Source: Escherichia coli (GTDB lineage: Bacteria; Pseudomonadota; Gammaproteobacteria; Enterobacterales; Enterobacteriaceae). Taken from it: 64,000 bases of DNA. Below the pieces are notes generated by a model. That model did not search any database. It was not told the DNA's origin and saw nothing but the letters and a program-made list of their open reading frames with translations. The stretch is from the NCBI RefSeq assembly GCF_041886205.1, contig NZ_CP169029.1. One strand, written 5' to 3'. Numbering within the stretch: position 1 is the first letter of the stretch; the number at the start of each line of letters is the position of its first letter. Shown here one piece after another: positions 2,044-44,700 of the stretch. Made by a program: the position numbers and the translations under genes.

Positions 2044-2618
2044 TGGCATTCAGAATGAGTGAACAACCACAGACCATAAAAATTTATAATCTGCTGGCCG
2101 GAACTAATGAATTTATTGGTGAAGGTGACGCATATATTCCGCCTCATACAGGTCTGCCAGCAAACAGTACCGATATTGCACCGCCAGATATTCCGGCAGG
2201 CTTCGTGGCTGTTTTCAACAGTGATGAGGCATCGTGGCATCTCGTTGAAGATCATCGGGGAAAAACCGTCTATGACGTGGCTTCCGGCGACGCGTTATTT
2301 ATTTCTGAACTCGGTCCGTTACCGGAAAATGTTACCTGGTTATCGCCGGAAGGGGAGTTTCAGAAGTGGAACGGCACAGCCTGGGTGAAGGATACGGAAG
2401 CAGAAAAACTGTTCCGGATCCGGGAGGCGGAAGAAACAAAAAACAACCTGATGCAGGTAGCCAGTGAGCATATTGCGCCGCTTCAGGATGCTGCAGATCT
2501 GGAAATTGCAACGGAGGAAGAAATCTCGTTGCTGGAAGCATGGAAAAAGTATCGGGTATTGCTGAACCGTGTTGATACGTCAACTGCACAGGATATTGAA
2601 TGGCCAGCACTGCCGTAG
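2043..2618 (+). CDS. tfaQ: Tail fibre assembly protein (191 aa)
   Basis: ATG overlaps the stf stop (TAATG); protein [16 protein letters not shown]... matches the Tfa family. Confidence 0.9.
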
Positions 2619-2715
2619 GGTAAAACATATAAATTCTATAATTAGATGTATCTTTCCATTTACGGCAAGGAAGGGGGCTTGGAACACGTAAAGCATCTCA
2701 CACCGAGATTATTTT

Positions 2716-3306
2716 TTATATGTCAGGTGTCTGAAGTTTTGCTTTGGCTCTTAAAATGGTTTGCCGCGAGGTTTTGAATTCCCGGGCAATGGCACTTATA
2801 CTTACACCTGACTTAATTCGTTCGAATACCACCTGTTTCTGTTCTTCATTTAACACAGGTGGTCGACCAAAACGTTTCCCTGCGCCGCGGGCTCTTACTA
2901 TCCCGGAATGAGTGCGTTCAAGTAAAAGGTCTCGTTCAAATTCAGCGACTGCTGAAATTACTTGCATCATCATTTTTCCTGTTGGACTGGTCAGGTCAAT
3001 GCCACCCAATGCTAAGCAATGCACTCTGATACCTGTTTCGGTCAGTTGTTCCACTGTTTTCCTGATATCCATTGCATTACAACCAAGGCGATCCAGTTTT
3101 GTCACAATCAATTGATCACCACATTTCAGGCGAGCAAGCAACCGGTTAAAACCAGGACGCTCACTGGTTGCTGCTGAGCCGCTAATGTGTTCTTCGATTA
3201 TTTGCTGAGGTTTGATTTTAAAACCTGCACTTTCGATTTCCCGGCGTTGATTTTCGGTGGTCTGATCCAGCGTTGATATCCGACAGTAAGCAAAAATTCG
3301 AGACAT
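2716..3306 (-). CDS. pinQ: Serine recombinase / DNA invertase (Pin/Hin/Gin family, 196 aa)
   Basis: N-terminal resolvase fold [15 protein letters not shown] with catalytic Ser context, C-terminal HTH; convergent with stf-tfa. Confidence 0.9.
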
Positions 3307-3623
3307 AGTGAGACTCTATTCGAAATTGGTGTTCATATCATAATGCATCTCAGAAAATAATTATGATTATTTTTGTGCATATTTGTATGTACACGTTCGA
3401 AAATAAACGAATGCGTATGCAACCCCGTAATTTTTGGTGAGACCCAAAATCGATTTTGTGAAAAATGGCTTTAACTTGGTTTGTTTTTCGAGTTCCGGGC
3501 GGGCTCAAGGAAGAAGAATAGTGTTGCGTGTTATTTTAACCAGATTTCAAGTTGTTTGGACGTGGAAAAGTGGAGCAAAATGTTGTTAAAGTGGAAAAAT
3601 GATAAAAAAGTAAGTTTATTATA

Positions 3624-3857
3624 TTACATTTTACCATTTAAATTTTGGTTGTCTTTAAGAACTGATATCGCTGTTTGTAATAATTCTTTGTTATCCAGCC
3701 ATGATTTTTTCTTTATGTTTCCTTCAATGTAATCAAGCAATGTTCTGGTATTAATAGGTCTTCCCTGTTTTGCTACTTCCACTACAGCATCCCCTAGGAT
3801 AATTCTTACTTCAGGAAGCTGCGCAGGGAACCACTTAAGGGTGTCTTTTGATTTCAT
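3624..3857 (-). CDS. ydfK: Small prophage protein YdfK/YnaE family (77 aa)
   Basis: ORF track 3624..3890; start placed at the internal ATG 3855-3857, which has an AAGGAA Shine-Dalgarno 8 nt upstream. Confidence 0.75.
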   Translation of the reverse strand: MKSKDTLKWFPAQLPEVRIILGDAVVEVAKQGRPINTRTLLDYIEGNIKKKSWLDNKELLQTAISVLKDNQNLNGKM

Positions 3858-4642
3858 GAAGATATTCCTTAAAATATTATTGATTTTCATTGCGATATTG
3901 TATGTCTGATTCAGGATATGTTGACTTATACATCGGTTTTGTCTGGGTTATTGGATATGCCAATCCCTAATTTTATTAGGGCATGACTAAAAATGCTGAA
4001 TATGATAAGGAGAGAAGTGATTATCAGTATGCTGTTCATATAGCCTCGAATTAGTAATGTGTTATATATGATATAGTTGACAATTTTTATCTTGGGTGTT
4101 TTTAAAGTTCGTAGATAAACATTGTCGTTTCAGGTATACAGGAATGCTAGCAGGTGGCAGCAAAAATCAGGCGGTTTATGGCGCAAGCTGAAGCGGCAAC
4201 TGCAAACTATCTTATGCAGAGACTCTACACGGATTGGGTTTAAAAGTATACATAGATAACAGTTTTTATCTGAAAAAGAAAAATATCAAGGTGATATAGC
4301 CTATATGCCTTTGATGCGGAGGAATGACTGTGATGGGAGTGATGTATCTGAATAGTTGAAAAAACGCAGACACGCCTTATGCAAGAACGTGCTGCGGTTG
4401 GCTGGTAAATTTTTCGATAGTGTGAGTATTGAATGATTTCCAGCCGTTCTTGATTTTACGCATAAATCCATGAAAAAACTACTTATCTGTTGGGGAGTTT
4501 TTTTGGGGCATATATGGGACAGAAATAGGCCCCAGATAGACACTGAGATCGAACTTAGGATGCTTTTTAAAAAATGCAACTATCTGAAAAAACCTAGAAA
4601 ACGCCAAGGAAACCACAGGATGGGAAAAAACACCTGTGAATT

Positions 4643-5926
4643 ATGGATTTCCAGTTATATTCGCTCGGCGCAGCGTTAGTGTTTCATGAAATATTTTTTC
4701 CTGAATCATCAACGGCAATGGCGTTAATTCTGGCAATGGGAACCTACGGTGCAGGTTATGTGGCGCGTATTGTCGGAGCATTTATTTTCGGCAAAATGGG
4801 CGACAGAATAGGGCGTAAAAAAGTGCTCTTTATTACCATCACCATGATGGGGATCTGTACTACCTTAATTGGTGTGCTGCCGACCTATGCACAAATTGGT
4901 GTTTTTGCACCCATCTTGCTGGTGACGCTGCGTATTATTCAGGGGTTGGGTGCAGGTGCGGAAATTTCCGGTGCCGGTACGATGCTGGCGGAATATGCGC
5001 CAAAAGGTAAGCGCGGAATTATCTCCTCATTTGTGGCTATGGGAACTAACTGCGGAACCTTGAGCGCAACGGCAATCTGGGCCTTTATGTTCTTCATTCT
5101 CAGTAAAGAGGAACTGCTGGCGTGGGGATGGCGTATACCGTTCCTGGCGAGCGTTGTCGTGATGGTCTTTGCTATCTCGTTACGTATGAATCTGAAAGAA
5201 AGCCCGGTCTTTGAGAAGGTTAATGACAGCAACCAACCGACAGCAAAACCTGCACCTGCTGGTAGCATGTTCCAGAGCAAATCCTTCTGGCTGGCAACAG
5301 GGCTGCGTTTTGGTCAGGCGGGTAACTCCGGGTTAATTCAGACTTTCCTTGCAGGCTATTTAGTGCAGACGTTATTGTTTAACAAAGCAATTCCAACAGA
5401 TGCATTGATGATTAGTTCGATTCTCGGCTTTATGACCATTCCGTTCCTTGGTTGGTTATCCGATAAAATTGGTCGCCGGATCCCGTATATTATTATGAAT
5501 ACCTCCGCGATTGTGCTGGCATGGCCAATGCTTTCTATCATCGTAGATAAAAGCTATGCCCCGAGCACCATTATGGTTGCACTGATTGTGATTCATAACT
5601 GTGCGGTGCTGGGATTATTTGCTCTGGAAAACATTACCATGGCAGAAATGTTCGGCTGTAAAAACCGCTTTACCCGGATGGCTATTTCTAAAGAAATTGG
5701 TGGTCTTATCGCTTCCGGTTTTGGTCCTATCCTGGCGGGTATTTTCTGCACCATGACGGAATCCTGGTATCCGATCGCCATTATGATCATGGCATATTCA
5801 GTGATTGGTTTAATCTCTGCGCTGAAAATGCCAGAGGTGAAAGACCGTGATTTAAGTGCGCTGGAAGACGCTGCGGAAGATCAACCGCGTGTTGTAAGAG
5901 CTGCGCAACCTTCCAGAAGTCTGTAA
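4643..5926 (+). CDS. ydfJ: MFS (MHS-family) transporter, apparently N-terminally truncated at the prophage junction
   Basis: 427-aa ORF with MFS signatures (GKMGDRIGRKK loop) but lacking the usual N-terminal segment; begins right after the prophage/host boundary. Confidence 0.8.
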   Translation: MDFQLYSLGAALVFHEIFFPESSTAMALILAMGTYGAGYVARIVGAFIFGKMGDRIGRKKVLFITITMMGICTTLIGVLPTYAQIGVFAPILLVTLRIIQGLGAGAEISGAGTMLAEYAPKGKRGIISSFVAMGTNCGTLSATAIWAFMFFILSKEELLAWGWRIPFLASVVVMVFAISLRMNLKESPVFEKVNDSNQPTAKPAPAGSMFQSKSFWLATGLRFGQAGNSGLIQTFLAGYLVQTLLFNKAIPTDALMISSILGFMTIPFLGWLSDKIGRRIPYIIMNTSAIVLAWPMLSIIVDKSYAPSTIMVALIVIHNCAVLGLFALENITMAEMFGCKNRFTRMAISKEIGGLIASGFGPILAGIFCTMTESWYPIAIMIMAYSVIGLISALKMPEVKDRDLSALEDAAEDQPRVVRAAQPSRSL

Positions 5927-6013
5927 ACCCTCAATCCCTTCTCTTACCGGAGAGGGGATTTTTATTCATATAACAAAACATGTAGCTTGCATATTTAAAT
6001 TTAAGGAATTGTT

Positions 6014-7474
6014 ATGGGAAATAATTTGTTATCAGCAAAAGCGACGCTCCCTGTTTATGATCGTAATAACCTAGCTCCAAGAATTGTTCATTTAGGCTTT
6101 GGTGCATTTCACCGTGCGCATCAGGGTGTGTATGCCGATATTCTTGCTACGGAACATTTCAGTGACTGGGGATATTATGAGGTCAACTTAATCGGCGGCG
6201 AACAGCAAATTGCCGATTTACAACAGCAAGATAATCTTTATACCGTTGCGGAAATGTCGGCCGATGTGTGGACGGCTCGCGTTGTTGGCGTCGTTAAAAA
6301 AGCCTTGCACGTACAGATAGATGGCTTAGAAACCGTGTTGGCAGCGATGTGTGAACCGCAAATCGCGATTGTCTCTCTGACAATCACCGAAAAAGGGTAT
6401 TTCCACTCTCCGGCGACCGGACAGTTAATGCTCGATCACCCGATGGTAGCTGCCGACGTGCAAAATCCCCACCAGCCGAAAACAGCAACAGGGGTGATTG
6501 TTGAGGCGCTGGCTCGCCGTAAAGCGGCAGGACTTCCCGCATTTACCGTCATGTCATGTGACAACATGCCAGAAAACGGTCATGTTATGCGTGACGTTGT
6601 CACTTCCTACGCACAAGCCGTTGATGTAAAACTGGCACAATGGATCGAAGATAACGTGACTTTCCCATCAACAATGGTGGACCGTATTGTGCCCGCAGTG
6701 ACAGAGGATACGCTGGCGAAAATCGAACAACTTACCGGTGTGCGCGATCCTGCGGGCGTTGCCTGTGAACCTTTCCGCCAGTGGGTAATAGAAGATAACT
6801 TTGTTGCCGGACGTCCGGAATGGGAAAAAGCGGGAGCCGAACTGGTTAGCGATGTGCTGCCTTATGAAGAGATGAAGTTGCGCATGCTCAACGGCAGTCA
6901 TTCATTCCTGGCGTATCTGGGGTATCTTGCAGGATATCAGCACATTAATGACTGTATGGAAGATGAACATTATCGTTATGCGGCGTATGGCTTGATGTTG
7001 CAGGAACAAGCGCCGACGTTGAAAGTGCAGGGCGTTGATTTGCAAGATTACGCTAACCGATTAATTGCACGCTATAGCAACCCGGCGTTACGTCATCGAA
7101 CCTGGCAGATTGCGATGGATGGTAGCCAGAAATTGCCACAGCGGATGTTGGATTCTGTTCGCTGGCATCTGGCGCATGACAGCAAGTTCGATCTGCTGGC
7201 GCTGGGCGTCGCGGGTTGGATGCGTTATGTCAGTGGTGTTGATGAACAGGGAAATCCGATAGAAATCAGTGACCCACTGTTACCTGTTATTCAGAAGGCT
7301 GTACAAAGTAGTGCCGAAGGGAAAGCGCGCGTCCAGTCATTGCTGGCGATTAAGGCGATCTTTGGTGATGATTTGCCAGACAATAGTTTGTTTACTGCAA
7401 GAGTGACGGAAACGTACTTGTCTTTATTAGCGCATGGCGCGAAAGCGACCGTGGCAAAATATTCCGTGAAGTAA
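6014..7474 (+). CDS. ydfI: Mannitol/mannonate dehydrogenase-family oxidoreductase (486 aa)
   Basis: [10 protein letters not shown] dinucleotide-binding N-terminus, long-chain mannitol dehydrogenase family; RBS present. Confidence 0.9.
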
Positions 7475-17925: not shown

Positions 17926-18027
17926 GCGATGCAAGGCAATGATACTAATCTGTATGGGAACGGAAAATATAATCTTTGCGTTATTATAACTGATAAGTTA
18001 TATTCAAGTATAAACAGGGGGGAAGCT

Positions 18028-18348
18028 ATGTATGAGCTACTATTTCACCCCGAAGCGGAAAGCGAAATTTATGACCTCGAACCTATTATGCAAGCAAAGG
18101 TACTTAAGGGACTAGAAAAGCTGGAAGCGAAAGGGCCGGAACTCCGCTATCCAGATACAGGCATTATCCAGGATGGTTTGTTTGAGTTGCGCGTAGGAAG
18201 AAAAGACATTTCAAGAACATTTTTTGCTTACGCTAAAGGTCGAAAGATCTATATTTTAAGAACGTTTATTAAGAAGACCCCTAAGACTCCGAAGGCCGAA
18301 ATTGCTCTGGCGACGTCAAGATGGGAGGAACTGAAAGATGGCTGTTAA
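18028..18348 (+). CDS. Type II toxin, RelE/ParE superfamily (Gp49/HigB-like, 106 aa)
   Basis: ATG at 18028 preceded by AGGGGGGAAG Shine-Dalgarno; about 106 aa basic protein (MYELLFHPEAESEIYDLEP...RTFIKKTPKTPKAEIALA...); 11-nt overlap with the downstream HTH gene. Confidence 0.8.
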   Translation: MYELLFHPEAESEIYDLEPIMQAKVLKGLEKLEAKGPELRYPDTGIIQDGLFELRVGRKDISRTFFAYAKGRKIYILRTFIKKTPKTPKAEIALATSRWEELKDGC

Positions 18349-18622
18349 AGGTATCAAGTTTTCTGAAGTCAAAGCAAAAGCACTTGCCAATCCTGACGTT
18401 AAAAAGGCTTACGATGAAGCCACGCAGGAAGAAGAACTCCGTGCAGTCCTCATTGAAATGAAGAAGAGAGCCGGATTAACCAGCACCGAGATTGCAGCTC
18501 GCATGGGAGTTAGCCAACCAGCTGTCAGCCGTCTTGAGAGGAATGTATCAAGTGCCAGCCTTACAACGTTACAACGTTATGCTGCAGCTTGTGGTATGCA
18601 CATTAAGTTGTCTCTTCAATAA
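18338..18622 (+). CDS. XRE-family HTH antitoxin (HigA-like, 94 aa)
   Basis: HTH LTSTEIAARMGVSQPAVSRLERN; translationally coupled to the upstream toxin. Confidence 0.8.
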   Translation: MAVKGIKFSEVKAKALANPDVKKAYDEATQEEELRAVLIEMKKRAGLTSTEIAARMGVSQPAVSRLERNVSSASLTTLQRYAAACGMHIKLSLQ

Positions 18623-18742
18623 AATCGACACACTCGGATAGCTACCAGCCACAGGTCTGGAGTCGACTCTCAGCGAACCCAGACCTTTTCATTTCGAACA
18701 ACACAATTGCCTTAATTGAGGCATACAGGATAACAACCACCA

Positions 18743-30803: not shown

Positions 30804-32606
30804 TTATTTACTCCCGTCAGCGCGTTACCCCAATTGTAGATAAAACTGTTGACATCCTCCACGCCCTGAATGACGAGGATCCTGCTACGTTCAGGCTGTC
30901 GCCTGAATCATTTCGGTGGGTTCCTGCTTCAACGGGCGGCCTGACTGCACCATCCCTCCACAGGCAAGAACGGCGTGCCCCGCCGCTAAAATGTTACGAG
31001 CGCCATTTACATCGGCGTTCGCTGTATATCCACATACCTGGCATCTGAATTTACTTTGTGACAGGCGGTTCTCTTTCGCTGTATGACCACAGTACGCGCA
31101 ACGCTGGCTTGTATACGCTGGCGGAACAGCAAGCACCTGACCGCCACGCCAGAGCTGCTTGTACTCAAGCTGGCGGCGCATTTCATACCAGCCCTGATCC
31201 AGTATCGAACGGTTTAAACCTGATTTTGCCCGGACATTGCGCCCCGGCTGGCTGACCGTACCCGCTGCTGACTTTGACATGTTGCTGACCTTCAAATCCT
31301 CAATGACTATCATTGCGTGGTTTTTGCTGACGGTCGTTGTGACTTTGTGAAGGTAGTCCCTGCGGATATTTGCGATACGGGAATGCAGTCGCTGTATTTT
31401 GCGTTTCTGCTTCTGCCAGTTGTTGCTGAATTTGACCTTGCGGCTTAACTGTCGCTGAAGTCTCGCCAGCTTCTTCTGGTTTTTCTGAAAACTGTTTACA
31501 GGCTCAAAGACTGTACCATCTGACAGCGTGGCGAGTTTAGCCACGCCAGCATCCAGCCCGATCATTGATGCTGAAGGGTGAACCGGAGTTGATACTTCAC
31601 TTTCTGTCTGAATACTGATGTGCCACTTACCGCAGGACTGGCTGACCGTGACATTTTTCACAACACCCGTGACCTGACGGCTATTCCGGTAGCGCATCCA
31701 GCCCAGTTTCGGCAGAAAAATACGGCTGTTTTCCTGATCGAGCTTAACGCCCTGCGGGTAGCGGAATGCATCATTCTGTCCCCGCTTTTTGAATCGGGGA
31801 AAAGCAGCCCGCTTCTGGAAGAAGTTTTTGTAAGCCCGCTCAAGGTCTTTCAGTGACTGTTGCAATGGCTGTGACGGGGCATCTTTAAGCCATTGCGTTT
31901 CAGTGGCATTTTTCCACTCAACCAGCCAGGAAGCCATTTTCCCGTAAGGGATGTATTTATTACCGGCCTCATGATTCTCATTCTGACGTGCCAGAGCACG
32001 ATTGAAAACGAAACGACATGCGCCTGCGAAGCGCCTCATTTCACGCTCCTGTTGACCACCGGGTCTTAACTGGAATTTAAATGCCTGTAGTCGTTTCACA
32101 GGTCAAATTATATTTTGGTCTGTGAAAAAAGAAACCGATATCCGGCGTGGAAGGCATTGTGTTTTCCTGAAGCATGTTCACATGGTCTTTGTCACCAAAT
32201 ACCGACGCCAGATTTTTGACCATGACGCGACAGAAAAACTACGCACTTACTTTTCAAATGTATGTGCTGATTTTGAAGCTGAACTGGTTGAAATGGATGG
32301 CGAACCAGATCACGTCCATTTGTTAATTAACTATCCTCCCAAACTGGCGATATCCAGTCTGATAAACAGCCTCAAAAGCGTATCGGGTAGGTTACTGCGA
32401 CGAGATCGACCAGATATTGCAGTCAGGTATTACTACAAAGGCGTTTTGTGGAGTCCTGGCTATTTTGCCAGTAGCTGCGGAGGTGCGCCAATATCCGTCA
32501 TCCGCCAATACATTGAACAACAGCAAACACCTGGTCAGGTGGAAAACCGCGCCTTATATCCCCGCCCTGAAGGACGGGGTTTTACGGCGCACCGGATAAA
32601 TTCGCC
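30804..32606. mobile_element. IS200/IS605-family insertion sequence with divergent tnpB and tnpA between tam and lsrG; ends approximate
   Basis: Y1 HuH transposase gene and TnpB gene back to back (starts 22 bp apart), occupying the whole 1.8-kb interval between tam and lsrG; imperfect hairpins at both ends. Confidence 0.8.
30891..32099 (-). CDS. tnpB: TnpB (IS605 OrfB), RuvC-like RNA-guided nuclease, 402 aa, apparently intact
   Basis: RuvC-I (IGLDAGV), RuvC-II ([13 protein letters not shown]), zinc finger (CAYCGH...[18 protein letters not shown]) all present, no internal stops. Confidence 0.9.
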
Positions 32607-32688
32607 TCACGGCATCAACCCATTGAACAGACGTTTTTTACGCGGCCCGGTCATTAAAGATTCCAGTTTCGCGACACAGGTTTTGTAG
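32122..32688 (+). CDS. tnpA: TnpA, IS200-type Y1 (HuH) transposase; C-terminal extent uncertain (ORF runs to 188 aa and overlaps the lsrG 3' end)
   Basis: HuH motif (HVHLLINY) and tyrosine-containing C-terminal region (YIEQQ); typical family members are about 140-155 aa. Confidence 0.8.
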
Positions 32689-32894
32689 TGGGGCGTGGTT
32701 TTATGGAACGCCACTGCGTCTTCATCTTTATAGGCTTCGTAGATATAAAAGCGCGAATTCACTTCCGGGTCCTGTAAGACATCGAAGCGCAAATTGCCTT
32801 CTTCCTGTACAGAGCCCAGGTGGTTCTGGCGAAAAACTTCGATAAACTCGTCAACCTTGTCTTCATGAACGTTAATTTCAACCAGTGTGACGTG
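32607..32894 (-). CDS. lsrG: (4S)-4-hydroxy-5-phosphonooxypentane-2,3-dione isomerase (96 aa)
   Basis: ABM-domain ORF starting [10 protein letters not shown]; last gene of the lsr operon. Confidence 0.9.
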
Positions 32895-32919
32895 CATGTT
32901 TCTTCTCCTTAATCCGCAG

Positions 32920-33795
32920 TTACTGTTTTTCACTCAGATAGAGTTCATATGCCCGATCAGCCGTTTCGTTATGGTGTACCACCGCCTGTACGGCTTTCAT
33001 CATCGCCACCGGATGGTCAGACTGGAAAATATTACGCCCCATATCCACACCAGAAGCGCCCTGATCGATAGCCTGCCAGCACATTTCCAGCGCCTCGCGC
33101 TCCGGTAATTTTTTACCGCCAGCAATAACAATGGGTACCGGACATCCGGCAACAATCCGTTCAAAACCTTTATCGACATAATAGGTTTTGATAATTTGCG
33201 CCCCCATTTCAGCGGCGATTCGAGTCGCGAGCGAGAAATAACGCTGATCGCGCACCATATCTTTGCCCACGCCTGTCACGGCCATGGTCGGCATTCCCAC
33301 TTTCATTCCGGCATCAACCAGCTGAATAATATTTTTGATCGACTGATGTTCATATTCGCTGCCGATATAAACCTGCGCCGCCACCGCGCAACTGTTCAGG
33401 CGCACGGCGTCATCCATCGATAACGCCACGGCTTCATTACTTAATTCCGCCAGAATAGAGTTCGCACCTGACGCCCGCAGTACCACCGGCCTATTGGTCG
33501 CAGGGGGAACTACGCTGCGCAAAATGCCGCGCGTACACATTAATACATCGGCATGTTCAAACAGCGGGGCGATATTTATATCAATGCGTTCAAGTCCGGT
33601 AGTCGGTCCCTGAAAATAACCATGGTCAAAAGCCAGCATCACGGTTTTACCCGTTTTCGGATTAAATATCCGCGATAAGCGTGACTGCATTCCCCAATCC
33701 AGCGCACCGCAACCTTTCAGGGTAAAAGGGATATTTTTTTGCGGTTGATCGGTACGAAAATCTTTACCATCTTTAATATCGTCTAAATCTGCCAT
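32920..33795 (-). CDS. lsrF: 3-hydroxy-5-phosphonooxypentane-2,4-dione thiolase, DeoC/aldolase family (291 aa)
   Basis: Class I aldolase-like sequence in conserved lsr position. Confidence 0.9.
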
Positions 33796-33821
33796 AACTT
33801 ACTCCGGTTAAGTAATGCACA

Positions 33822-34844
33822 TCAGAAATCGTATTTGCCGATATTCTCTTTGTTGAATATCACGCGCTCCGGTAACAGTACGATGCCATTACCATCCGCT
33901 TCGTAGTCATAGCCCTGAACGCTGTTTGGCGAGACTTCAACCTGACCTACGCCCTTGATATCCAGCTTGTCGCCCGTTTTCATTGATCCTTTTTTCAATA
34001 ATGCATCCGCGACATACACTGAAATTTTGCCTTGCTGAACCACATCCCACAGGCCAAATTCTTTCACCGTGCCGCGCTCTACATACGGGCGCATCACATT
34101 TGGCGTACTGAATCCGACAATCGCAACTTTGTCATTTTTCAGGTTTTCTGCGGCTTGTGCGGCAGCGGGCAGGGCGTTGGCATCAGGGGCGATAATGGCG
34201 TCGAGATCGCTATACGCTTTTAATATTCCTTCTGCGGTTTGTAACGATTTAGTGGCATCGTTATAGCCAAACTGCGTAGTGACAATTTCCCAGCCAGGAT
34301 GCTCTTTGGCGATTTTCGCTTTCGCTTCTTTCACCCACTGGTTTTGGTCCGTAACGGTGGGGCTTGAGTAGAAAAACGCGACTTTGGCTTTGTCTTTATT
34401 CACCTGACGCGCCGCCATATCCACCAACATACCTCCCAACTGGGCGGGCGTTCCCTGATTAATGTAGTAAGAGCGGCACTCCGGTTTAGTATCAGAGTCC
34501 CAGGTCAGCACTCTCACACCACGTTGCATGGCGCGTTTCAGTGCCGGACACAAGCCATCAGGCGAAACCGCAGAAACGATAATGGCGTTATAACCCTGAT
34601 TGACGAAGTTATTAATCAACTGTACCTGACCAGAAACACTGGGTTCTGTCGGCCCGTCGTAGGTCACATCAACGCCCAGCTCTTTACCCGCTTGTTGTGC
34701 GCCGTTGCCACCACTGGTAAAAAATCCCACGCCAACCAGTTTGGGAATAAATGCAATACGCTCTGCGGCCTGCACATTCATAGAGATTGCGGCAATGCCA
34801 AGAGCGCTAAGTAAGGCGATTTTCTTAAAGCGATGAAGTGTCAT
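33822..34844 (-). CDS. lsrB: AI-2 periplasmic binding protein (340 aa)
   Basis: Signal peptide plus sugar-binding periplasmic protein fold. Confidence 0.9.
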
Positions 34845-34855
34845 GAAGATATCCT

Positions 34856-35848
34856 TTATGGCAATGGGTTATTGGCCCGACGCGCCAGCCACTCTTTAAT
34901 TTGCTGGCGATGCAGGCTAACGGAACGACCTACGACAACGACGATAAGTAGCGCACCGGAAAGGGCGCTGGACACCTGATTTGGCACTCCTGCCATTTGC
35001 AAACCTTGTTGCAAATATCCCACTAATAAAACCGCAATGGCGGTGCCGATAATGGAACCGGAACCACCATAAATATTGGCACCGCCAAGCACCACGGCGG
35101 TGATGGCGGGCATCAGAAACGACGCACCGAGATCGGAACGTGCTGAACCAAAATACGATACCAGCAGCACAGCGGCGACCGCAGACGCCAGCCCCGTCAT
35201 GGCATAGAGCGCACATAAGGTGCGGTTAACTGGAATCGCGCTATAAAGCGCCACGCGCGGGCTTTGCCCAATCAAAAACACATTACGTCCGGCATGGGTT
35301 TTATGCAGCCAGAGCCAGAAAACGAGGAGACATATCAGGAAGATAATCAGCGGAACGGGGAGCCCCAGCACATCCAGGTTAGCGAAATCTGTAAACGCCA
35401 TCGGGAATCCACCAATATCTTCGTACCCCGTCGCTCCGGCCATCCCGGAAAGCAGCAGGGCACTTCCGGCAAACAGATACAGCGTGCCAAGCGTAATCAC
35501 CAGCGGGTTAACTTTGGTATAGATAATTAATCCGGCGTTGATCAGCCCGCACAATACGCCGAGCAGTAAGGTCAGGAGTATCGCCAGCGGCATCGGCACA
35601 CCACTTTGAAACAGTACGCCCAATGCAATGGCGCAGAGGCCGATGGTCGAACCAAACGAAATATCGATCCCGCCACTGACAATCACCATCGTCAGCGGTA
35701 GGGCGACAATGCCAATGCAGATAAAGTCACTGGTGCTGAACAGCAACATATTGAGATCTAACATCCGCGGGTTAATTGCACCAAATGCGACAATCTCAAT
35801 AACGAGCAGTGCGGCAAGAGCCAGTTCCCAACCGTAGCGAATACGCAT
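34856..35848 (-). CDS. lsrD: AI-2 ABC transporter permease (330 aa)
   Basis: ABC-2 ribose-type permease ORF. Confidence 0.9.
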
Positions 35849-36876
35849 TATGCGGCCTCCCGTTTTTTACCTGACGAAGCGGGTTTAACGGATGGCGGTG
35901 GCGTCATAAAGCGGGCATATTTTTGCCGCCGCAGATTACGTTCCAGCGCACAACGCAGGCGTCCATCAAACACCAGCACCGCTAGCAGCACGAGGCCCGC
36001 GATAAAATCGTTCCACCATGCCGGAATGCGCAACAGCACCAGTACGCTATCGATCTGCGTCAGGAACCATGCGCCGAGTACCGCACCGATGATCGCACCG
36101 GAACCGCCGAGCAAACTAATGCCGCCCAGCACGCAGGCTGCAATTGCTTTCATCTCCAGCCCGGTACCGGTCTGGTTGGGGATAAAACCAATCTGCGAAG
36201 CAAACACAATCCCCGCCAGTGCCGCCATGCAGCCGTTCAACGAAAATGCCACAATGCGAATGGCTTCCGTACGAACGCCCAGTTGACGAGCTCCCTGTAA
36301 ATTATCGCCCGTGGCATAAAAACTGCGTCCAAACGCCGTCTTTGCCAGCAGCCAGGCCATAAATGCCACCAGAATTATCGTTAACTAACCAATTGCTGAA
36401 ACGCCAAGCAGCAGCGGGGCGGAGAGCTGTTTCAGTTCGGCGGGTAACCCCTCAATCCATTTACCGCCAGTCCACAGCAACATGATGCCTCTGTACAACC
36501 CTAACGAGCCAAGGGTGGCAACAATGGCAGGGATCTTTAGCCACGCGACCAGGACACCGTTGAAAAATCCCGCGAGCAAACCAAGCAGTAAAGTCGCGAC
36601 ACAGGCAACAGGTAGTGAATATCCTGCGTTCAGTAACATCCCCAACAGCACCGCGCACATTCCGGTAATCGAACCCACTGAAACATCAATATTGCGCGTA
36701 AGCATTACCAGCGTCGCGCCCATTGCCAGCAGGATCAGGATTTGCGCGCTGCTATAAACCATGGTCAGCGTTTGCACACTTAAATACTGGCGGTCGAGAA
36801 AACCGGGTAATACAAACAGCAGCACCACCGCCAGCAGTGCCGTGATTTCACGGTTGTTCTGAATAAACTTCAGCAT
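35848..36876 (-). pseudogene. lsrC: lsrC AI-2 ABC permease interrupted by an in-frame TAG stop (minus-strand codon at 36385-36387)
   Basis: Single reading frame carries the N-terminal 163 codons, then TAG, then continues in the same frame (...[17 protein letters not shown]...); the ORF track splits it into 36385..36876 and 35848..36369. Confidence 0.85.
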
Positions 36877-38395
36877 GACGCCTCCTGACGCTGACTATCG
36901 CCGAAGGCAACGCGCATAATAGTCTCGACATTAATATCGCGCCCGGTCAGTGCAGAGTGGGTAATTTCGCCCTGATGCATCACATACACACGATCTGCCA
37001 TCAGTTCGATCTCTTCCAGATCAGAGGAGATAAGCAGCACTGCCACATTCTGTGCGGCGATGCTGCGCAACAGCTGGTAGATATCATTACGGGCTGAGAC
37101 ATCCACGCCGCGCGTCGGCTCATCGACAATCAATGCTTGCGGCGAAGCTTCCAGGCATTTGGCAATGAGGATTTTTTGCTGGTTGCCACCGGATAATGTC
37201 CGTGCAGCTTGTTCCGGTTGGTTAAATTTAATATTCAGCGCCCGACGATATCGTTCCAGGGTGGCATTATCTTTCGCGGTTTTCGCCCAGAATCCACGAA
37301 GGTTATGAGTAAGGGCGCAGACGTTCCACGCCAGTGAAGCATCGAGATTCAGTCCGGATGACTGGCGATCTTCCGGCAGATAAACCAGACCGCGCAGTAA
37401 ACGTTCTCCGGTGGATAATCTATTGATCTCTTTACCATTCAGCATAATGCTTCCGCCACGCAAACTACGCAGACCATAGAGCGTCTCGGCCAGTTCTGTG
37501 CGTCCGGCTCCCACCAGCCCAGCCAGGCCCAGAATTTCTCCGGCATTGAGCGTCAGGCTGACATTCCTGAAACCTTCGCCAGTCAGATTTTCCAGTGTCA
37601 GCACCGACGTTCCGGCGGCATGTTGTGGGCGGTTACCAGGTAACTCCAGCCATAATTTTTGGCTGGCAGAGAGCGATTTTTCCCGTACCACTGGCGTGAT
37701 GGCCTGAATAATGTCGTCGGTAGACAGTTCGCTGGTTTTGCCGCTTAAGGCGATGGTTCCGTCGCGCATCACGCTAATTCGATCGGCAATCTGGCGAATT
37801 TCCGGCAGCTTATGCGAGATAAAAACAATACCCACGCCAGTAGCAAGCAGCTCTTGCAAGCGACTAAACAAGCGTTCGGTTTCCGCAGGGGTAAGCGAGG
37901 CGGTAGGTTCAGAATCCGCGAGTCGCGCATCAGCCCGCGGAGGATTTCCACCATTTGGCGATCGGCGACATCCAGCGATCCTGCCAGACTATGCAGATCA
38001 AACTGGCAGCCCAGCGCCGCCAGCAAGTTCTTCATTTTCTGCATGGAGAGCTGTTTTTTTGCCAGCCCAAACAGGATGTTTTCTTTTATCGACAGGCTTG
38101 GAAAAAGCAGCGGTTCCTGGGGAACGAGATAAATACCCAGCTGATGAGCATGAACTGGCGTTAATCTGGCGTAGTTGTTGCCCCCAATCTTCAGCGTACC
38201 GCTATCAGCAGGGGTAATACCGGCAATAATCTTCATTAACGTCGATTTACCGGCACCATTGCCGCCGAGCAGGGCGTGGACCTCCCCCTGATGCAACGTA
38301 AAATCGATGCCTTTCAGGACATTGACCCCTGAATACTGTTTATAAACCGAGCGGGCGCAAAGTAGCGGTAACGCGCGGGTATCACTCGTTTGCAT
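36870..38395 (-). pseudogene. lsrA: lsrA AI-2 ABC transporter ATPase disrupted by a frameshift near 37905-37915
   Basis: N-terminal ORF (37769..38395) has Walker [10 protein letters not shown] and runs ...RDSRIL then out of frame; the C-terminal ORF (36870..37871) continues the ABC ATPase in another frame; Walker B hhhhDE not encoded in frame. Confidence 0.85.
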
Positions 38396-38643
38396 ATTTC
38401 CCCTGTTCAGTTTTGCAGGTGAGTTTTGAACAAATGTATTTCTGCTTTTAATTTGTTCATAACCTTAGGTGGACATTGCACATATTTCCGACGAATAGAT
38501 CACAATTTATGCTATTTTGATTCTCCCGGTTGCGTTTGTTCATACTCGTAGAGTCAAACTGTGGTTGCCATCACAGATATAAATGCGCAAGAACTGAACA
38601 ATTGCATTAAAGATTTAAATATGTTCAAAGTGAAGAATGAATT
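38396..38643. promoter_or_regulatory. Divergent lsrR / lsrACDBFG control region with a perfect inverted repeat TGAACAAAT-N15-ATTTGTTCA (38427-38459)
   Basis: Inverted repeat read directly; position between divergent lsrA and lsrR starts. Confidence 0.6.
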
Positions 38644-39597
38644 ATGACAATCAACGATTCGGTAATTTCAGAACAGGGAATGTGTGAAGAAGAACAGGTC
38701 GCGCGGATCGCGTGGTTTTACTACCACGACGGGCTGACCCAGAGTGAGATCAGCGATCGTCTCGGCCTGACCCGTTTGAAAGTGTCGCGATTACTGGAGA
38801 AAGGGCATCAATCCGGCATTATTCGCGTACAGATTAATTCTCGCTTTGAAGGCTGTCTGGAATATGAAACACAATTACGTCGTCAGTTTTCGCTGCAACA
38901 TGTCCGGGTGATCCCAGGGCTTGCGGATGCTGATGTCGGCGGGCGACTAGGGATAGGCGCGGCGCATATGTTGATGAGTTTACTTCAACCACAACAGATG
39001 CTGGCGATTGGTTTTGGCGAGGCAACCATGAATACGCTGCAACGCTTAAGTGGTTTTATTTCGTCACAGCAAATTCGCCTGGTCACGCTCTCCGGTGGAG
39101 TCGGTTCTTATATGACGGGTATCGGGCAGCTTAACGCGGCGTGCAGTGTGAATATTATTCCGGCTCCGTTGCGGGCATCCTCCGCTGACATTGCCCGTAC
39201 GCTAAAAAATGAAAATTGCGTCAAAGATGTTCTGCTAGCCGCGCAAGCAGCGGATGTGGCGATTGTCGGCATTGGTGCTGTGAGTCAACAGGACGATGCG
39301 ACAATCATTCGCTCCGGTTATATCAGCCAGGGCGAACAGTTAATGATTGGCCGAAAAGGTGCAATTGGCGACATTTTAGGCTACTTTTTTGATGCAAAAG
39401 GTGACGTTGTCACGGATATTAAAATACATAACGAACTGATTGGCTTACCTTTAAGCGCGCTGAAGACCATACCCGTCCGGGTTGGCGTGGCAGGGGGAGA
39501 AAATAAAGCCGAAGCAATTGTCGCTGCAATGAAAGGCGGTTATATCAACGCACTGGTCACCGATCAGGACACAGCAGCGGCGATTTTACGTAGTTAA
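38644..39597 (+). CDS. lsrR: LsrR repressor of the lsr operon (SorC family, 317 aa)
   Basis: N-terminal HTH plus sugar-phosphate binding domain. Confidence 0.9.
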
Positions 39598-39675
39598 ATT
39601 TGCATGACCTTATTACCGGGAATGATGGAGAACGTATAGAGGAACAGACAGAACGCATAAGCCGAGGATAATCTA

Positions 39676-41268
39676 ATGGCTCGACTCTTTACCCCTTCAG
39701 AATCAAAGTATTACCTGATGGCGCTGGATGCAGGTACCGGAAGTATTCGGGCTGTGATATTCGACCTGGAAGGCAATCAAATAGCAGTGGGACAGGCGGA
39801 GTGGCGGCACCTGGCAGTACCGGACGTTCCTGGTTCTATGGAATTTGATCTCAACAAAAACTGGCAACTGGCGTGTGAGTGTATGCGCCAGGCGCTGCAC
39901 AACGCCGGCATAGCCCCGGAGTATATCGCTGCCGTTTCGGCATGTTCGATGCGTGAAGGCATTGTTTTATATAACAATGAAGGAACACCGATCTGGGCCT
40001 GCGCCAATGTGGATGCCAGAGCGGCGCGCGAAGTTAGCGAACTTAAAGAACTGCACAACAATACCTTTGAAAACGAAGTTTATCGCGCGACCGGACAAAC
40101 ACTGGCTTTAAGTGCCATCCCCAGATTACTTTGGCTGGCGCACCATCGTTCCGATATTTACCGTCAGGCATCAACCATCACCATGATCAGCGACTGGCTG
40201 GCCTATATGCTCAGCGGCGAACTTGCGGTGGATCCCTCTAACGCTGGCACCACGGGACTTCTTGATCTAACCATCCGTGACTGGAAACCTGCATTGCTGG
40301 ATATGGCTGGCCTGCGTGCCGATATTCTTTCTCCTGTCAAAGAAACCGGCACATTGCTGGGCGTGGTAAGTTCACAAGCGGCGGAACTCTGCGGTCTGAA
40401 GGTGGGCACTCCGGTGGTCGTTGGAGGAGGCGACGTGCAGCTTGGTTGCCTGGGGTTAGGCATTGTGCGTCCGGCACAAACCGCGGTTCTTGGCGGCACA
40501 TTCTGGCAGCAAGTTGTAAATTTAGCCGCGCCGGTGACAGACCCAGAAATGAACGTGCGCGTTAATCCTCATGTTATTCCTGGCATGGTACAAGCTGAAT
40601 CTATAAGCTTTTTTACCGGACTCACCATGCGCTGGTTCCGCGATGCTTTCTGTGCCGAAGAAAAACTGATTGCCGAACGTTTAGGCATCGACACCTATAC
40701 GCTGCTGGAAGAGATGGCCAGTCGGGTGCCGCCTGGGTCGTGGGGCGTAATGCCGATCTTCTCCGACAGAATGCGCTTTAAAACCTGGTATCACGCTGCG
40801 CCTTCCTTTATTAATTTGTCCATTGACCTGGATAAATGTAACAAAGCGACATTGTTCCGTGCGCTGGAAGAAAATGCGGCGATTGTATCAGCGTGTAATT
40901 TGCAGCAAATTGCTGATTTCTCGAATATTCATCCCACCTCGCTGGTTTTTGCTGGCGGAGGTTCAAAAGGGAAATTATGGAGTCAAATTCTCGCTGATGT
41001 CTCGGGATTACCCGTCAATATTCCGGTAGTCAAAGAAGCCACCGCATTAGGATGTGCCATTGCAGCTGGCGTCGGTGCCGGAATTTTTTCATCAATGGCA
41101 GAAACCGGAGAACGCCTGGTTCGCTGGGAACGGACGCACACACCAGACCCGGAAAAGCATGAACTTTATCAGGATTCACGCGATAAGTGGCAGGCAGTTT
41201 ATCAGGATCAGCTGGGGCTGGTTGATCATGGACTGACGACGTCGTTATGGAAAGCGCCTGGGTTATAG
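39676..41268 (+). CDS. lsrK: Autoinducer-2 kinase (FGGY carbohydrate kinase family, 530 aa)
   Basis: FGGY kinase N-terminal motif [16 protein letters not shown]. Confidence 0.9.
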
Positions 41269-41798: not shown

Positions 41799-44700
41799 AT
41801 GAATAGAATCTATCGCGTGATATGGAATTGCACCCTACAGGTATTTCAGGTCTGCTCGGAATTAACTCGCAGGGTAGGTAAAAAATCGACGGTTAATTTG
41901 CGTAAATCCTCTGGACTGACAACGAAATTCAGTAGATTGACGCTGGGTGTTTTGCTGGCACTAAGCGGTTCAGCGTCTGGTGCGAGTCTGGAAGTTGATA
42001 ATGATCAGATTACCAATATTGATACTGATGTTGCTTATGATGCCTACCTGGTTGGCTGGTATGGCACTGGAGTGCTTAATATTTTGGCTGGCGGTAATGC
42101 CTCCTTAACCACGATTACTACCAGCGTCATTGGTGGTAATGAGAACTCGAAGGGCACCGTTAATGTTTTGGGTGGCACCTGGCGATTGTATGATAGCGGA
42201 AATAATGCAAGGCCTTTAAATGTGGGTCAATCCGGAACGGGGACGCTGAATATTAAACAGAAAGGTCACGTTGATGGAGGATATTTAAGGCTAGGTTCCT
42301 CGACAGGAGGCGTCGGGACGGTCAATGTTGAGGGAGAGGACTCTGTTCTGACGACCGAATTATTCGAAATAGGGAGCTATGGCACAGGCTCATTAAATAT
42401 TACAGATAAGGGTTACGTCACGAGTTCAATAGTCGCCATTTTAGGCTATCAGGCGGGCGGTAATGGCCAGGTTGTCGTGGAAAAGGGCGGCGAGTGGCTA
42501 ATAAAAAATAACGATTCCTCAATTGAATTTCAAATTGGTAATCAAGGAACGGGGGAAGCGACTATTCGCGGGGGTGGGCTGATTACGGCTGAAAACACGA
42601 TTATCGGTGGCAATGCCACCGGTATCGGAACCCTGAATGTGCAGGATCAAGACTCTGTCATCACGGTACGCAGACTCTATAATGGATATTTCGGCAATGG
42701 CACAGTCAATATTTCCAATAATGGACTGATTAATAACAAAGAATATTCATTGGTGGGCGTTCAGGACGGTTCCCACGGTGTCATCAACGTGACCGATAAA
42801 GGGCATTGGAATTTCCTCGGAACAGGCGAAGCTTTCCGCTATATCTATATCGGTGATGCTGGCGACGGTGAACTTAATGTCTCGAGTGAAGGCAAAGTAG
42901 ATTCGGGAATTATCACTGCGGGGATGAAAGAAACAGGCACAGGCAACATTACTGTTAAGGATAAGAACTCCGTTATCACTAATCTCGGAACTAATCTTGG
43001 TTATGACGGCCACGGCGAAATGAATATCAGTAATGAGGGGCTTGTTGTCAGCAACGGAGGAAGTTCACTCGGTTATGGAGAAACCGGCGTCGGGAATGTC
43101 AGCATCACCACGGGGGGGATGTGGGAGGTCAATAAGAATGTCTATACCACCATTGGTGTTGCGGGTGTCGGAAACCTCAATATTAGCGATGGCGGTAAGT
43201 TTGTATCGCAAAATATTACTTTTTTGGGCGATAAAGCAAGCGGTATCGGCACACTGAACCTGATGGATGCGACATCATCGTTCGATACTGTGGGTATCAA
43301 TGTCGGTAATTTTGGTAGCGGTATCGTAAATGTCAGTAATGGTGCCACCCTTAATTCAACGGGCTATGGATTTATCGGAGGAAATGCCTCCGGTAAGGGG
43401 ATAGTTAATATTTCAACGGATAGTCTCTGGAATTTAAAGACATCATCTACTAACGCCCAATTGCTACAGGTCGGTGTATTAGGCACGGGTAAACTGAATA
43501 TTACCACCGGAGGTATAGTTAAAGCGCGTGATACACAGATAGCTCTCAATGACAAAAGTAAGGGCGACGTGAGGGTGGATGGGCAGAACTCTCTGCTTGA
43601 AACATTCAATATGAACGTAGGGACGACTGGCACGGGTACGTTAACCCTGACGAATAACGGCACGCTGAATGTTGAGGGTGGCGAAGTTTACTTAGGTGTT
43701 TTTGAACCTGCTGTAGGAACGCTAAACATTGGTGCTGCTCACGGTGAGGCGGCGGCAGATGCCGGGTTTATCACCAACGCGACGAAAGTAGAGTTTGGTT
43801 CTGGCGAAGGTGTTTTTGTCTTTAATCATACCAATAACAGTGATACCGGCTACCAGGTCGATATGCTGATTACGGGTGACGATAAAGACGGAAAAGTGAT
43901 ACATGATGCAGGCCATACGGTGTTCAATGCAGGGAATACTTATAGCGGTAAAACGCTGGTCAATGACGGCCTCCTGACCATTGCGTCACATACGGCAGAT
44001 GGGGTAACGGGCATGGGTTCGAGTGAAGTAACCATTGCAAGCCCCGGTACGCTCGACATTCTCGCATCAACGAACAGTGCAGGAGATTACACGCTGACCA
44101 ATGCGCTCAAAGGCGATGGCTTGATGCGAGTTCAGCTGTCATCCTCCGACAAGATGTTTGGCTTTACCCATGCAACAGGGGCTGAATTCGCCGGTGTTGC
44201 CCAACTGAAAGACAGTACCTTCACTCTGGAACGCGACAACACCGCTGCGCTTACTCACGCGATGTTGCAGTCTGACATTGAAAATACCACATCGGTAAAC
44301 GTGGGAGAGCAATCCATTGGTGGACTGGCCATGAATGGCGGTACGCTCATTTTCGATACGGATATTCCTGCTGCGACGCTTGCAGAGGGATATATCAGCG
44401 TCGATACGCTGGTTGTCGGCGCGGGTGACTACACCTGGAAAGGCCGTAACTATCAGGTAAACGGGACGGGCGACGTGCTTATCGACGTGCCTAAACCGTG
44501 GAATGATCCCATGGCGAATAACCCTCTGACGACGCTCAATTTGCTGGAACACGATGATAGCCATGTCGGCGTTCAACTGGTGAAGGCGCAAACGGTTATT
44601 GGGTCGGGTGGTTCATTAACGTTACGTGATTTACAGGGCAACGAGGTGGAAGCGGACAAAACGTTACATATTGCGCAAAACGGAACGGTGGTCGCCGAGG

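Follow-up and report, generated by a model that had tools for sequence, protein, structure and literature searches.

The window, a stretch of 64,000 nucleotides from the Escherichia coli contig NZ_CP169029.1, contains the lsr locus of this species, and positions 32607–41268 span it exactly from the lsrG stop codon to the lsrK stop codon. The minus strand carries lsrG (32607–32897; phospho-AI-2 isomerase, intact, 96 aa; NF007791, 192 bits, cutoff 135), lsrF (32920–33795; thiolase acting on the phospho-AI-2 breakdown product, intact, 291 aa; NF006081, 560 bits, cutoff 297), lsrB (33822–34844; periplasmic AI-2 binding protein, intact, 340 aa; NF011937, 700 bits, cutoff 384), and lsrD (34856–35848; second permease, full-length frame, 330 aa; NF011612, 594 bits, cutoff 500). 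These are followed on the same strand by two pseudogenes, lsrC (35848–36876), for a permease, and lsrA (36870–38395), for the ATP-binding subunit of the AI-2 ABC importer; their repaired proteins score 666.7 bits against NF011961 (cutoff 388) and 951.8 bits against NF011967 (cutoff 586), respectively. On the plus strand lie lsrR (38644–39597), encoding the repressor released by phospho-AI-2 (intact, 317 aa; NF011947, 619 bits, cutoff 486), and lsrK (39676–41268), encoding the AI-2 kinase in a full-length frame (530 aa; NF008187, 994 bits, cutoff 528). As claimed by the sequence-only reading of this DNA, lsrR, lsrK, lsrB, lsrD, lsrF, and lsrG are full-length: they have normal lengths and zero internal stops, and all score above the NCBIfam equivalog cutoffs. 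The LsrB protein is the same as that of relatives with a working operon. The word "intact" applies to the reading frames of these six genes only, as LsrD carries G144D and LsrK carries P385L.

The divergent lsrA/lsrR control region (38396–38643) is 248 bp long. Direct reading reveals two LsrR-box-like inverted repeats, at 38427–38459 and 38595–38627, and a CRP-like site, TGTGG-N6-TCACA, at 38560–38575. The published p-lsrR box, extending from −237 to −197 relative to the lsrA start codon (PMC5137460), falls on the second repeat. The window therefore retains the divergent lsrRK/lsrACDBFG arrangement with its LsrR-box-like repeats and CRP-like site. The gene order, the control region of 248 bp, the two inverted repeats, and the CRP-like site are all shared with the canonical Lsr system of E. 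coli K-12 and Salmonella, and eight products match NCBIfam equivalog models. In contrast to the canonical system, the window has a frameshifted ATPase, a truncated permease, and a second permease altered at an invariant residue. A derived A-to-C change at 38526 (−131 from the lsrA ATG) was considered as a candidate regulatory lesion. Neither of the LsrR-box repeats and neither of the CRP-like sites includes it, and no effect could be ascribed to it.

At the 3′ end of the operon, where an IS element had been proposed, we found IS609 of the IS200/IS605 family (~30847–32600). It occupies the short tam–lsrG spacer, ends 6 bp beyond the lsrG stop, and interrupts no lsr gene. The assignment is based on a Y1 transposase gene, tnpA (32107–32532, plus strand; TnpA NF033573, 144 bits, profile positions 2–126 of 126), a tnpB gene (30891–32099, minus strand; TnpB NF040570, 384 bits), and identity of the whole element to known copies: over ~1.75 kb, its DNA is ~97–98% identical to other E. 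coli copies that carry the annotation IS609 or insQ. RefSeq annotates the tnpA of the window as lacking its C-terminus. The same insertion is present in ET201, in which lsrA is intact; IS609 is therefore older than the lsrA deletion described below and unrelated to the lesions. As a cause of decay the element was rejected, since the operon beside it in ET201 is intact and no lsr coding sequence overlaps it.

Aligned with the intact lsrA of ET201 and 720632, the window lsrA measures 1526 nt instead of 1536, and the 10 bases TGATCCTCGA (gene strand) are absent. The junction corresponds to window positions 37909–37912; the 3-bp TGA repeat flanking the missing segment precludes a more exact placement. 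In the first nucleotide-binding domain, the Walker B motif (I161-L-I-L-D-E166) has lost codons I163, L164, and D165, and the frame is shifted. The resulting product comprises 162 native and 46 aberrant residues (208 aa), with the aberrant ORF ending at 37769. RefSeq flags the same allele as "frameshifted" in wlxctx60 and 6EVA. Judged from its sequence, the gene is lsrA by descent and has lost the open LsrA frame. Set against established knowledge of ABC transporters, the Walker A and Walker B motifs of the transporter's sole consensus ATP site come from the first LsrA domain; in the second, Walker A is degenerate (GAGRT) and the switch histidine is missing. Since the sole consensus site depends on the damaged first domain, the importer could not be energised, and AI-2 import is predicted to be lost in the window lineage. 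Rescue of LsrA by two half-proteins was considered and rejected: the Walker B codons are physically gone, and residues 163 to at least ~178 are encoded in neither downstream ORF.

The lesion of lsrC is of a different kind. Codon 164 is TAG at 36385–36387, with T at 36386 on the plus strand, where relatives have TGG (Trp); this nonsense change cuts the product to 163 of 342 residues, so that no open frame for the LsrC permease (NF011961) remains in the window. Hence both inactivating lesions claimed for the transporter, in lsrA and in lsrC, were located base by base. Comparison with wlxctx60 revealed a further change, LsrD G144D (SNP at 35418), within the conserved motif GATGYEGIGGFP. This change is derived, linked to the lsrC stop, and present in the window subclade, and the residue is Gly in all 22 of the other LsrD sequences aligned. 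The importer has probably been damaged a third time by G144D.

A survey of lsrA and lsrC integrity, suggested by the sequence-only reading, drew on exact-sequence look-ups. The lsrA deletion junction occurs in 2 of 5426 complete E. coli genomes, and the lsrC stop allele occurs in none of the 3995 complete RefSeq genomes matching the segment; these carriers are too few for statistics. In wider public data, the exact 208-aa LsrA product was found on 165 contigs and in 198 sample blocks, and the exact 163-aa LsrC fragment on 15–17 contigs from independent runs. Among the latter is E. coli N1, which matches the window with 100% identity across 10.3 kb.

The distribution of the lesions reveals their order. 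All lsrC-stop loci that cover lsrA (L007, L008, L009, and L018) carry the lsrA deletion too. Most lsrA-deletion genomes, in turn, have intact lsrC: codon 164 is TGG in 11 loci sampled from the deletion clade, a small set chosen for differing gene neighborhoods, and the lsrC stop marks a minority subclade of ~17 of the ~198 sample blocks. The closest relative with intact lsrA is ET201, which has IS609 and the flanking haplotype in common with the window. The window differs from the nearest complete genome at about one position per 3 kb, and by this measure the deletion clade is very young. Other sublineages carry other lesions. In L017/ERR1157030, lsrB has a +1 T frameshift outside any homopolymer, and 6EVA has a −1 frameshift in lsrB together with an lsrK–hipA deletion that truncates lsrK and removes most of it. 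The −1 frameshift of 6EVA falls within a run of three G and may be an artifact of assembly. Later lesions are thus nested within the clade of the first lesion and differ between its sublineages. As read from these haplotypes, the order of events is IS609 insertion, the 10-bp lsrA deletion, LsrK P385L, and then the lsrC stop with LsrD G144D and the promoter-region SNP. The deletion traces to one origin on this haplotype, and a large clade descends from it. The two hits had been taken as independent evidence about selection. This view does not hold, as they are nested and lsrC was already useless when its stop arose.

Collectively, these observations make it very probable that the Lsr AI-2 ABC importer has undergone lineage-specific, stepwise pseudogenization, in which a founding knockout was followed by neutral decay. 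In the first step, which the sequence comparison supports directly, a deletion of 10 bp between 3-bp TGA repeats disabled LsrA in the ancestor of a widely sampled natural E. coli clade. In the second, with lsrA dead, lsrC, lsrD, and lsrB were left without a function to preserve, and sublineages gained different lesions: lsrC W164* and LsrD G144D in the window and N1, the lsrB +1 frameshift elsewhere, and the lsrB −1 frameshift plus lsrK truncation in 6EVA. The pattern of this step is observed, and its neutrality is our interpretation. Early termination within lsrA probably also lowers the expression of lsrCDBFG via polarity. Extracellular AI-2 should be cleared slowly, though still cleared: in K-12, slow AI-2 removal persists when the transporter is knocked out but not when lsrK is. 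By analogy with these mutants, Lsr-dependent AI-2 removal in the window lineage is predicted to be slow, and LsrK may still phosphorylate residual AI-2, and LsrR may still sense it. For the earlier proposal of relaxed or negative selection on AI-2 uptake, relaxation stands, since the importer is genetically dead and the second hit fits. Negative selection does not: once the first hit is present, a second is expected under neutrality and provides no argument for selection against uptake.

Intact frames beside a dead importer could also reflect purifying selection on lsrR and lsrK, with lsrF and lsrG perhaps included, either for the regulation of other genes or for the processing of AI-2 arriving via another route. 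Besides 6EVA, 15 of 15 sampled deletion-clade loci have full-length lsrR, lsrF, and lsrG, and lsrK is full-length in the sampled non-6EVA loci that reach it. LsrK, moreover, acts without the pump, as K-12 transporter mutants remove AI-2 slowly and lsrK mutants do not (PMC3595036). However, intact frames carry no meaning in so young a clade; at this age, they are the default expectation for lsrR, lsrK, lsrF, and lsrG. Changes have also accumulated in these genes. LsrK P385L (SNP at 40829) is derived and common to part of the deletion clade, and of 20 orthologs, 17 have Pro at this position and the other 3 have Ala; other missense changes within the clade are LsrK K11N, LsrK G95S at an invariant Gly, LsrR T158R, and LsrG S48L. 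The ratio of non-silent to silent changes within the clade is ~6:3 in lsrR/K/F/G and ~9:3 in the transporter genes, so the former is not below that of the dead transporter; both ratios are near the expectation for unselected mutation, although the counts are too small to be decisive and come from the deletion clade alone. Together with the loss of most of lsrK in 6EVA, these points render selective retention unlikely. The suggestion that LsrR and LsrK are kept for other roles accordingly loses its footing, given the young clade, the missense changes in both proteins, and the truncated kinase gene of 6EVA.

We consider it similarly improbable that abolition of AI-2 import was positively selected, for instance through social cheating or by avoiding the cost of Lsr expression. 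Support comes from the wide occurrence of the deletion allele, on ~165–198 contigs or blocks spanning several hosts and countries, and from the literature, in which balancing or social selection on lsr has been argued (PMC3595036) and an lsr-negative strain surpassed its lsr-complemented derivative in fitness (PMC12263705). In addition, 4173 of 5426 complete E. coli genomes cover at least 80% of the locus, and about a quarter lack most of it. Nevertheless, the abundance of the clade may stem from anything else in its genome, and the deletion arose once within this haplotype and is found in only the two complete genomes noted above. Later hits in the same pump add no phenotype after the first knockout, and the second hit is therefore uninformative on selection. 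The mutation pattern shows no excess either: the 8.7-kb lsr locus holds 3 of the 11 window-derived changes in 47 kb, against 2.0 expected. Clustering of these three (35418, 36386, and 38526) was also considered, and by a rough scan-statistic estimate made by hand, three changes within 3.1 kb are unremarkable; a comparable SNP trio lies elsewhere in the window at 3837–6283. So few mutations fit neutral decay and positive selection for loss alike, and the two cannot be separated on this basis. A more far-reaching version, in which loss of import was advantageous in a globally spread commensal lineage and LsrK, LsrR, LsrF, and LsrG form an AI-2 sensor independent of uptake and supplied through a second route of entry, appears quite improbable. 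If true, it would mean that a signal scavenger was rewired into a passive listener rather than simply decaying.

An origin of either or both lesions in sequencing, in assembly, or in laboratory mutation has next to no probability, even though the lsrC stop is absent from the complete genomes matching its segment, because the exact truncated products recur in numerous assemblies and read sets obtained independently from different sources (which refutes sequencing error for both lesions), one lsrC-stop carrier has an extra private SNP, and a 10-bp deletion is unlike a homopolymer error. Laboratory adaptation, which the sequence-only reading had left as an option, is excluded by the carriers themselves, which are fecal isolates from humans and wildlife, plus metagenome-derived assemblies; their sources include human feces (Singapore), a wild bear (Japan), and many independent sequencing runs.

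Natural pseudogenization of lsr has been described previously by Brito, Rocha, Xavier and Gordo (Genome Biol Evol 2013; PMC3595036), who reported at least eight independent inactivations among 44 genomes, through truncations, small indels, and stop codons, and less efficient AI-2 removal in transporter knockouts. The present case involves the same operon and the same kinds of lesions, a small frameshifting indel and a premature stop. It also shares with those cases a flanking insertion sequence, decay that goes on after inactivation, and a predicted phenotype of less AI-2 internalization with signal production retained. In contrast, the event in the window (lsrA deletion, then lsrC W164* with LsrD G144D) is not among their genomes, which were downloaded in 2011. 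The triggering lesion, which that study calls often impossible to identify, is identifiable here because most clade members carry the lsrA deletion alone. Furthermore, flanking insertion sequences stand here beside intact operons (IS609 in ET201 and IS4 in 720632), whereas in those 44 genomes they stood beside inactivated operons only. Loss of AI-2 uptake in natural E. coli, as predicted for the window, is also known from phylogroup B2 and strain 83972, where lsr is missing altogether (PMC12263705). In B2 strains, however, the locus is gone by large deletion (PMC12263705), while in the window it is physically complete with point-scale lesions, as in early decay.

The lability of lsr in natural E. 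coli is thus published, and the window presents an ordinary, already documented kind of gene decay that leaves the understanding of AI-2 signaling unchanged. It adds one well-resolved inactivation, independent of those catalogued earlier, to a list whose length was already recognized. Its value is that of an early-stage snapshot, in which the order of events is directly readable and sister sublineages took different second steps. A clade of ~200 public samples could serve to measure the rate of operon decay after the first gene loss, and the same clade could test whether lsrR and lsrK fare differently from the transporter genes.

The lsr locus of Escherichia coli occupies 8.66 kb of both strands (32607-41268). 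The lsrACDBFG operon is encoded on the minus strand (38395 to 32607), and lsrR (38644-39597) and lsrK (39676-41268) are divergent from it on the plus strand. All eight Lsr products pass NCBIfam equivalog cutoffs, LsrA and LsrC after in silico repair. Alignment and a frame check confirmed the sequence-only reading that lsrA and lsrC each carry an inactivating lesion, while the six other lsr genes are full length without internal stops. Among 5426 complete E. coli genomes, 5339 match the 8.66-kb lsr query and just 4173 cover at least 80% of it, consistent with the published lack of lsr in many strains. Of the complete genomes, wlxctx60 (Japanese black bear faeces) is nearest, with 16 SNPs and one indel separating it from the window across positions 1-47958; E. 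coli N1 (GCA_000303635.2) is 100% identical across 10,348 bp spanning the lsr locus.

Alignment to the intact lsrA of strains ET201 and 720632 shows that 10 bases, TGATCCTCGA (gene strand), are missing from the window lsrA, with the junction at 37909-37912. The deleted segment begins with TGA, and TGA also directly follows it, giving a 3-bp microhomology. I163, L164, and D165 of LsrA are lost and the frame is shifted; the predicted product has 208 residues, 162 of them native, and ends at 37769. In repaired LsrA, the first nucleotide-binding domain has R-I-L-I-L-D-E-P-T as its Walker B motif. Judged by the general features of ABC ATPases, Walker A (GGNGAGKS) and Walker B are canonical in this domain and its signature motif is degenerate; in the second domain, Walker A is degenerate (GAGRT), the signature is canonical (LSGGNQQK), and the switch histidine is missing. 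Because of this motif make-up, loss of Walker B residues would destroy the single consensus ATP site of LsrA.

Codon 164 of lsrC is TAG in the window and TGG in all relatives, which shortens LsrC to 163 of 342 residues. Moreover, LsrD G144 is situated within the motif GATGYEGIGGFP, and glycine occupies this position in 22 of 22 other aligned LsrD sequences, 75-99% identical to the window protein and drawn from Serratia, Citrobacter, Salmonella, Yersinia, Xenorhabdus, Photorhabdus, Edwardsiella, and others. Three linked derived SNPs define the window/N1 subclade, at 35418 (LsrD G144D), 36386 (LsrC W164*), and 38526 (intergenic). In practice, the importer of this subclade appears to have been struck three times, in LsrA, LsrC, and LsrD. 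The 38526 SNP (A to C, -131 from the lsrA start), linked to the other two, is flanked by two CRP-like sites and falls in neither of the LsrR-box-like inverted repeats of the 248-bp lsrA-lsrR spacer (38427-38459 and 38595-38627). The second repeat coincides with the p-lsrR box published at -237 to -197 relative to the lsrA start (PMC5137460). One CRP-like site, TGTGG-N6-TCACA, was read in the spacer sequence at 38560-38575.

The lesions are nested rather than the two independent hits first proposed. All lsrC-stop loci covering lsrA (L007, L008, L009, and L018 among the sampled relatives) also have the lsrA deletion, and lsrC codon 164 is TGG in eleven sampled loci of the deletion clade. ET201, the closest relative with intact lsrA, already has IS609 between tam and lsrG, and some deletion-clade members, the window among them, share the derived LsrK P385L (SNP at 40829). 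This nesting gives the order IS609 insertion, lsrA deletion, LsrK P385L, and finally the three subclade SNPs. The ATPase gene was broken at its catalytic core, and the later lesions arose within the lsrA-deletion clade.

Sister lineages took other second steps. In strain 6EVA, from human faeces in Singapore, the identical lsrA deletion is accompanied by an lsrB frameshift, which falls in a GGG run and could be an assembly error; in addition, a deletion joins the 5' part of lsrK to hipA in this strain. In the ERR1157030 contig, a +1 T in lsrB, not in a homopolymer, gives an immediate stop after V171. Such divergence between sublineages is the expected pattern once the first knockout had left the remaining pump useless, and it supports relaxed selection on AI-2 uptake. 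Separately, a sister subclade of the deletion lineage (L013, L014, and L020) carries LsrK G95S (codon 95, equivalent to window 39958); Gly95 is invariant in 21 of 21 aligned orthologs, and its replacement may be an early sign of kinase drift as well.

With changes polarised by wlxctx60 and ET201, 11 changes over about 47 kb are derived in the window lineage. The 8.7-kb lsr locus holds 3 of them where 2.0 would be expected, and hence shows no mutation excess. Within the deletion clade, changes in the transporter genes number approximately 9 non-silent (missense, nonsense, or frameshift) and 3 silent, and those in lsrR, lsrK, lsrF, and lsrG approximately 6 and 3, with the 6EVA lsrK truncation included. 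Both ratios are close to unselected mutation and are likewise usual in very recent divergence. Adaptive loss of lsr is a minority possibility: in a 2025 study, an lsr-negative strain out-competed its own lsr-complemented derivative (PMC12263705). As for the suggestion that lsrR and lsrK were selectively kept, the near-neutral ratio leaves it unsupported, and the data offer no ground for claiming or excluding such preservation.

IS609 lies at about 30847-32600 in the tam-lsrG spacer (30804-32606; about 60 bp if empty), is 97-98% identical over ~1.75 kb to E. coli IS609 copies elsewhere, and codes for a 402-aa TnpB and an IS200-type TnpA. It ends 6 bp beyond the lsrG stop codon and interrupts no lsr gene; its presence beside the intact lsrA of ET201 rules out a role in inactivation. 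The tnpA frame has no stop within the element and continues to 32688, antisense into the lsrG 3' end. Similarly, 720632 has IS4 in this spacer (L003 4516-5844) with its lsr coding sequence untouched, and ISs seem to land in this spacer repeatedly. Whereas Brito and colleagues, in their 44 genomes, found ISs only beside inactivated operons (PMC3595036), those of 720632 and ET201 adjoin intact ones, so ISs next to lsr are not limited to inactivated operons.

The exact lsrA junction occurs in just two complete RefSeq genomes, wlxctx60 and 6EVA, and the lsrC stop in none of 3995 matching the lsrC segment; alone, this scarcity would be compatible with sequencing error. Exact-sequence look-ups in a large protein collection reject that explanation, recovering the 208-aa LsrA product in 165 contigs (198 sample blocks) and the 163-aa LsrC fragment in 15-17 contigs, whose carriers include N1, three unrelated read sets, and one metagenome-derived assembly, one carrier having an additional private SNP. 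Both lesions are alleles that natural lineages have inherited, which disposes of laboratory adaptation.

The window has an intact copy of the 1806-aa ECSE_1600-family autotransporter gene adjoining lsrK (41799-47219, plus strand). Its counterpart is broken up into two or three ORFs in the deletion-clade relatives L015, L019, L020, and L021 and is annotated as frameshifted in ET201, reflecting either a second decaying gene or repeat-driven assembly errors. hipBA (47442-49030) is intact. In wlxctx60 (record 2090601-2109159, L005), a TnAs1 transposon and an island bearing a retron Ec78 system (RT, PtuA, PtuB) and two integrases split hipA; in 6EVA (L004 13805-23600), the deletion linking lsrK to the hipA 3' part adjoins a filamentous-phage-like block (Zot-domain protein, secretin, replication protein). 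In this lineage, hipA resembles an insertion hot spot. Between marC and marR, at about 18017-18630 as mapped from wlxctx60 annotation, lie a RelE/ParE-type toxin and a helix-turn-helix partner; compared with wlxctx60 and ET201, the window alone has an additional G, at 18017, which lies 11 bp before the toxin ORF. By wlxctx60 and ET201 annotations, positions 1-6000 open in Qin-like prophage remnants (tail fibre, tfaQ, pinQ, ydfK) adjoining a 5'-truncated ydfJ.

Collectively, the Lsr pump is predicted from sequence to be non-functional, and early lsrA termination may lower downstream transcription or translation through polarity. Cells would remove AI-2 slowly, not at zero rate, by analogy with K-12, in which transporter knockouts remove it less efficiently and an lsrK knockout shows no internalisation (PMC3595036); AI-2 entering by another route could still be handled by LsrK, LsrR, LsrF, and LsrG. 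Brito and colleagues reported at least 8 independent lsr inactivations in 44 genomes, through truncation, premature stops, and small indels, one of them a 7-bp deletion, with fast continued decay thereafter (PMC3595036), and the window event is one further instance of exactly that phenomenon. The decay is an ordinary, already known kind of event; its sole distinction is early capture, so that the triggering lesion and the order of the later hits are visible.
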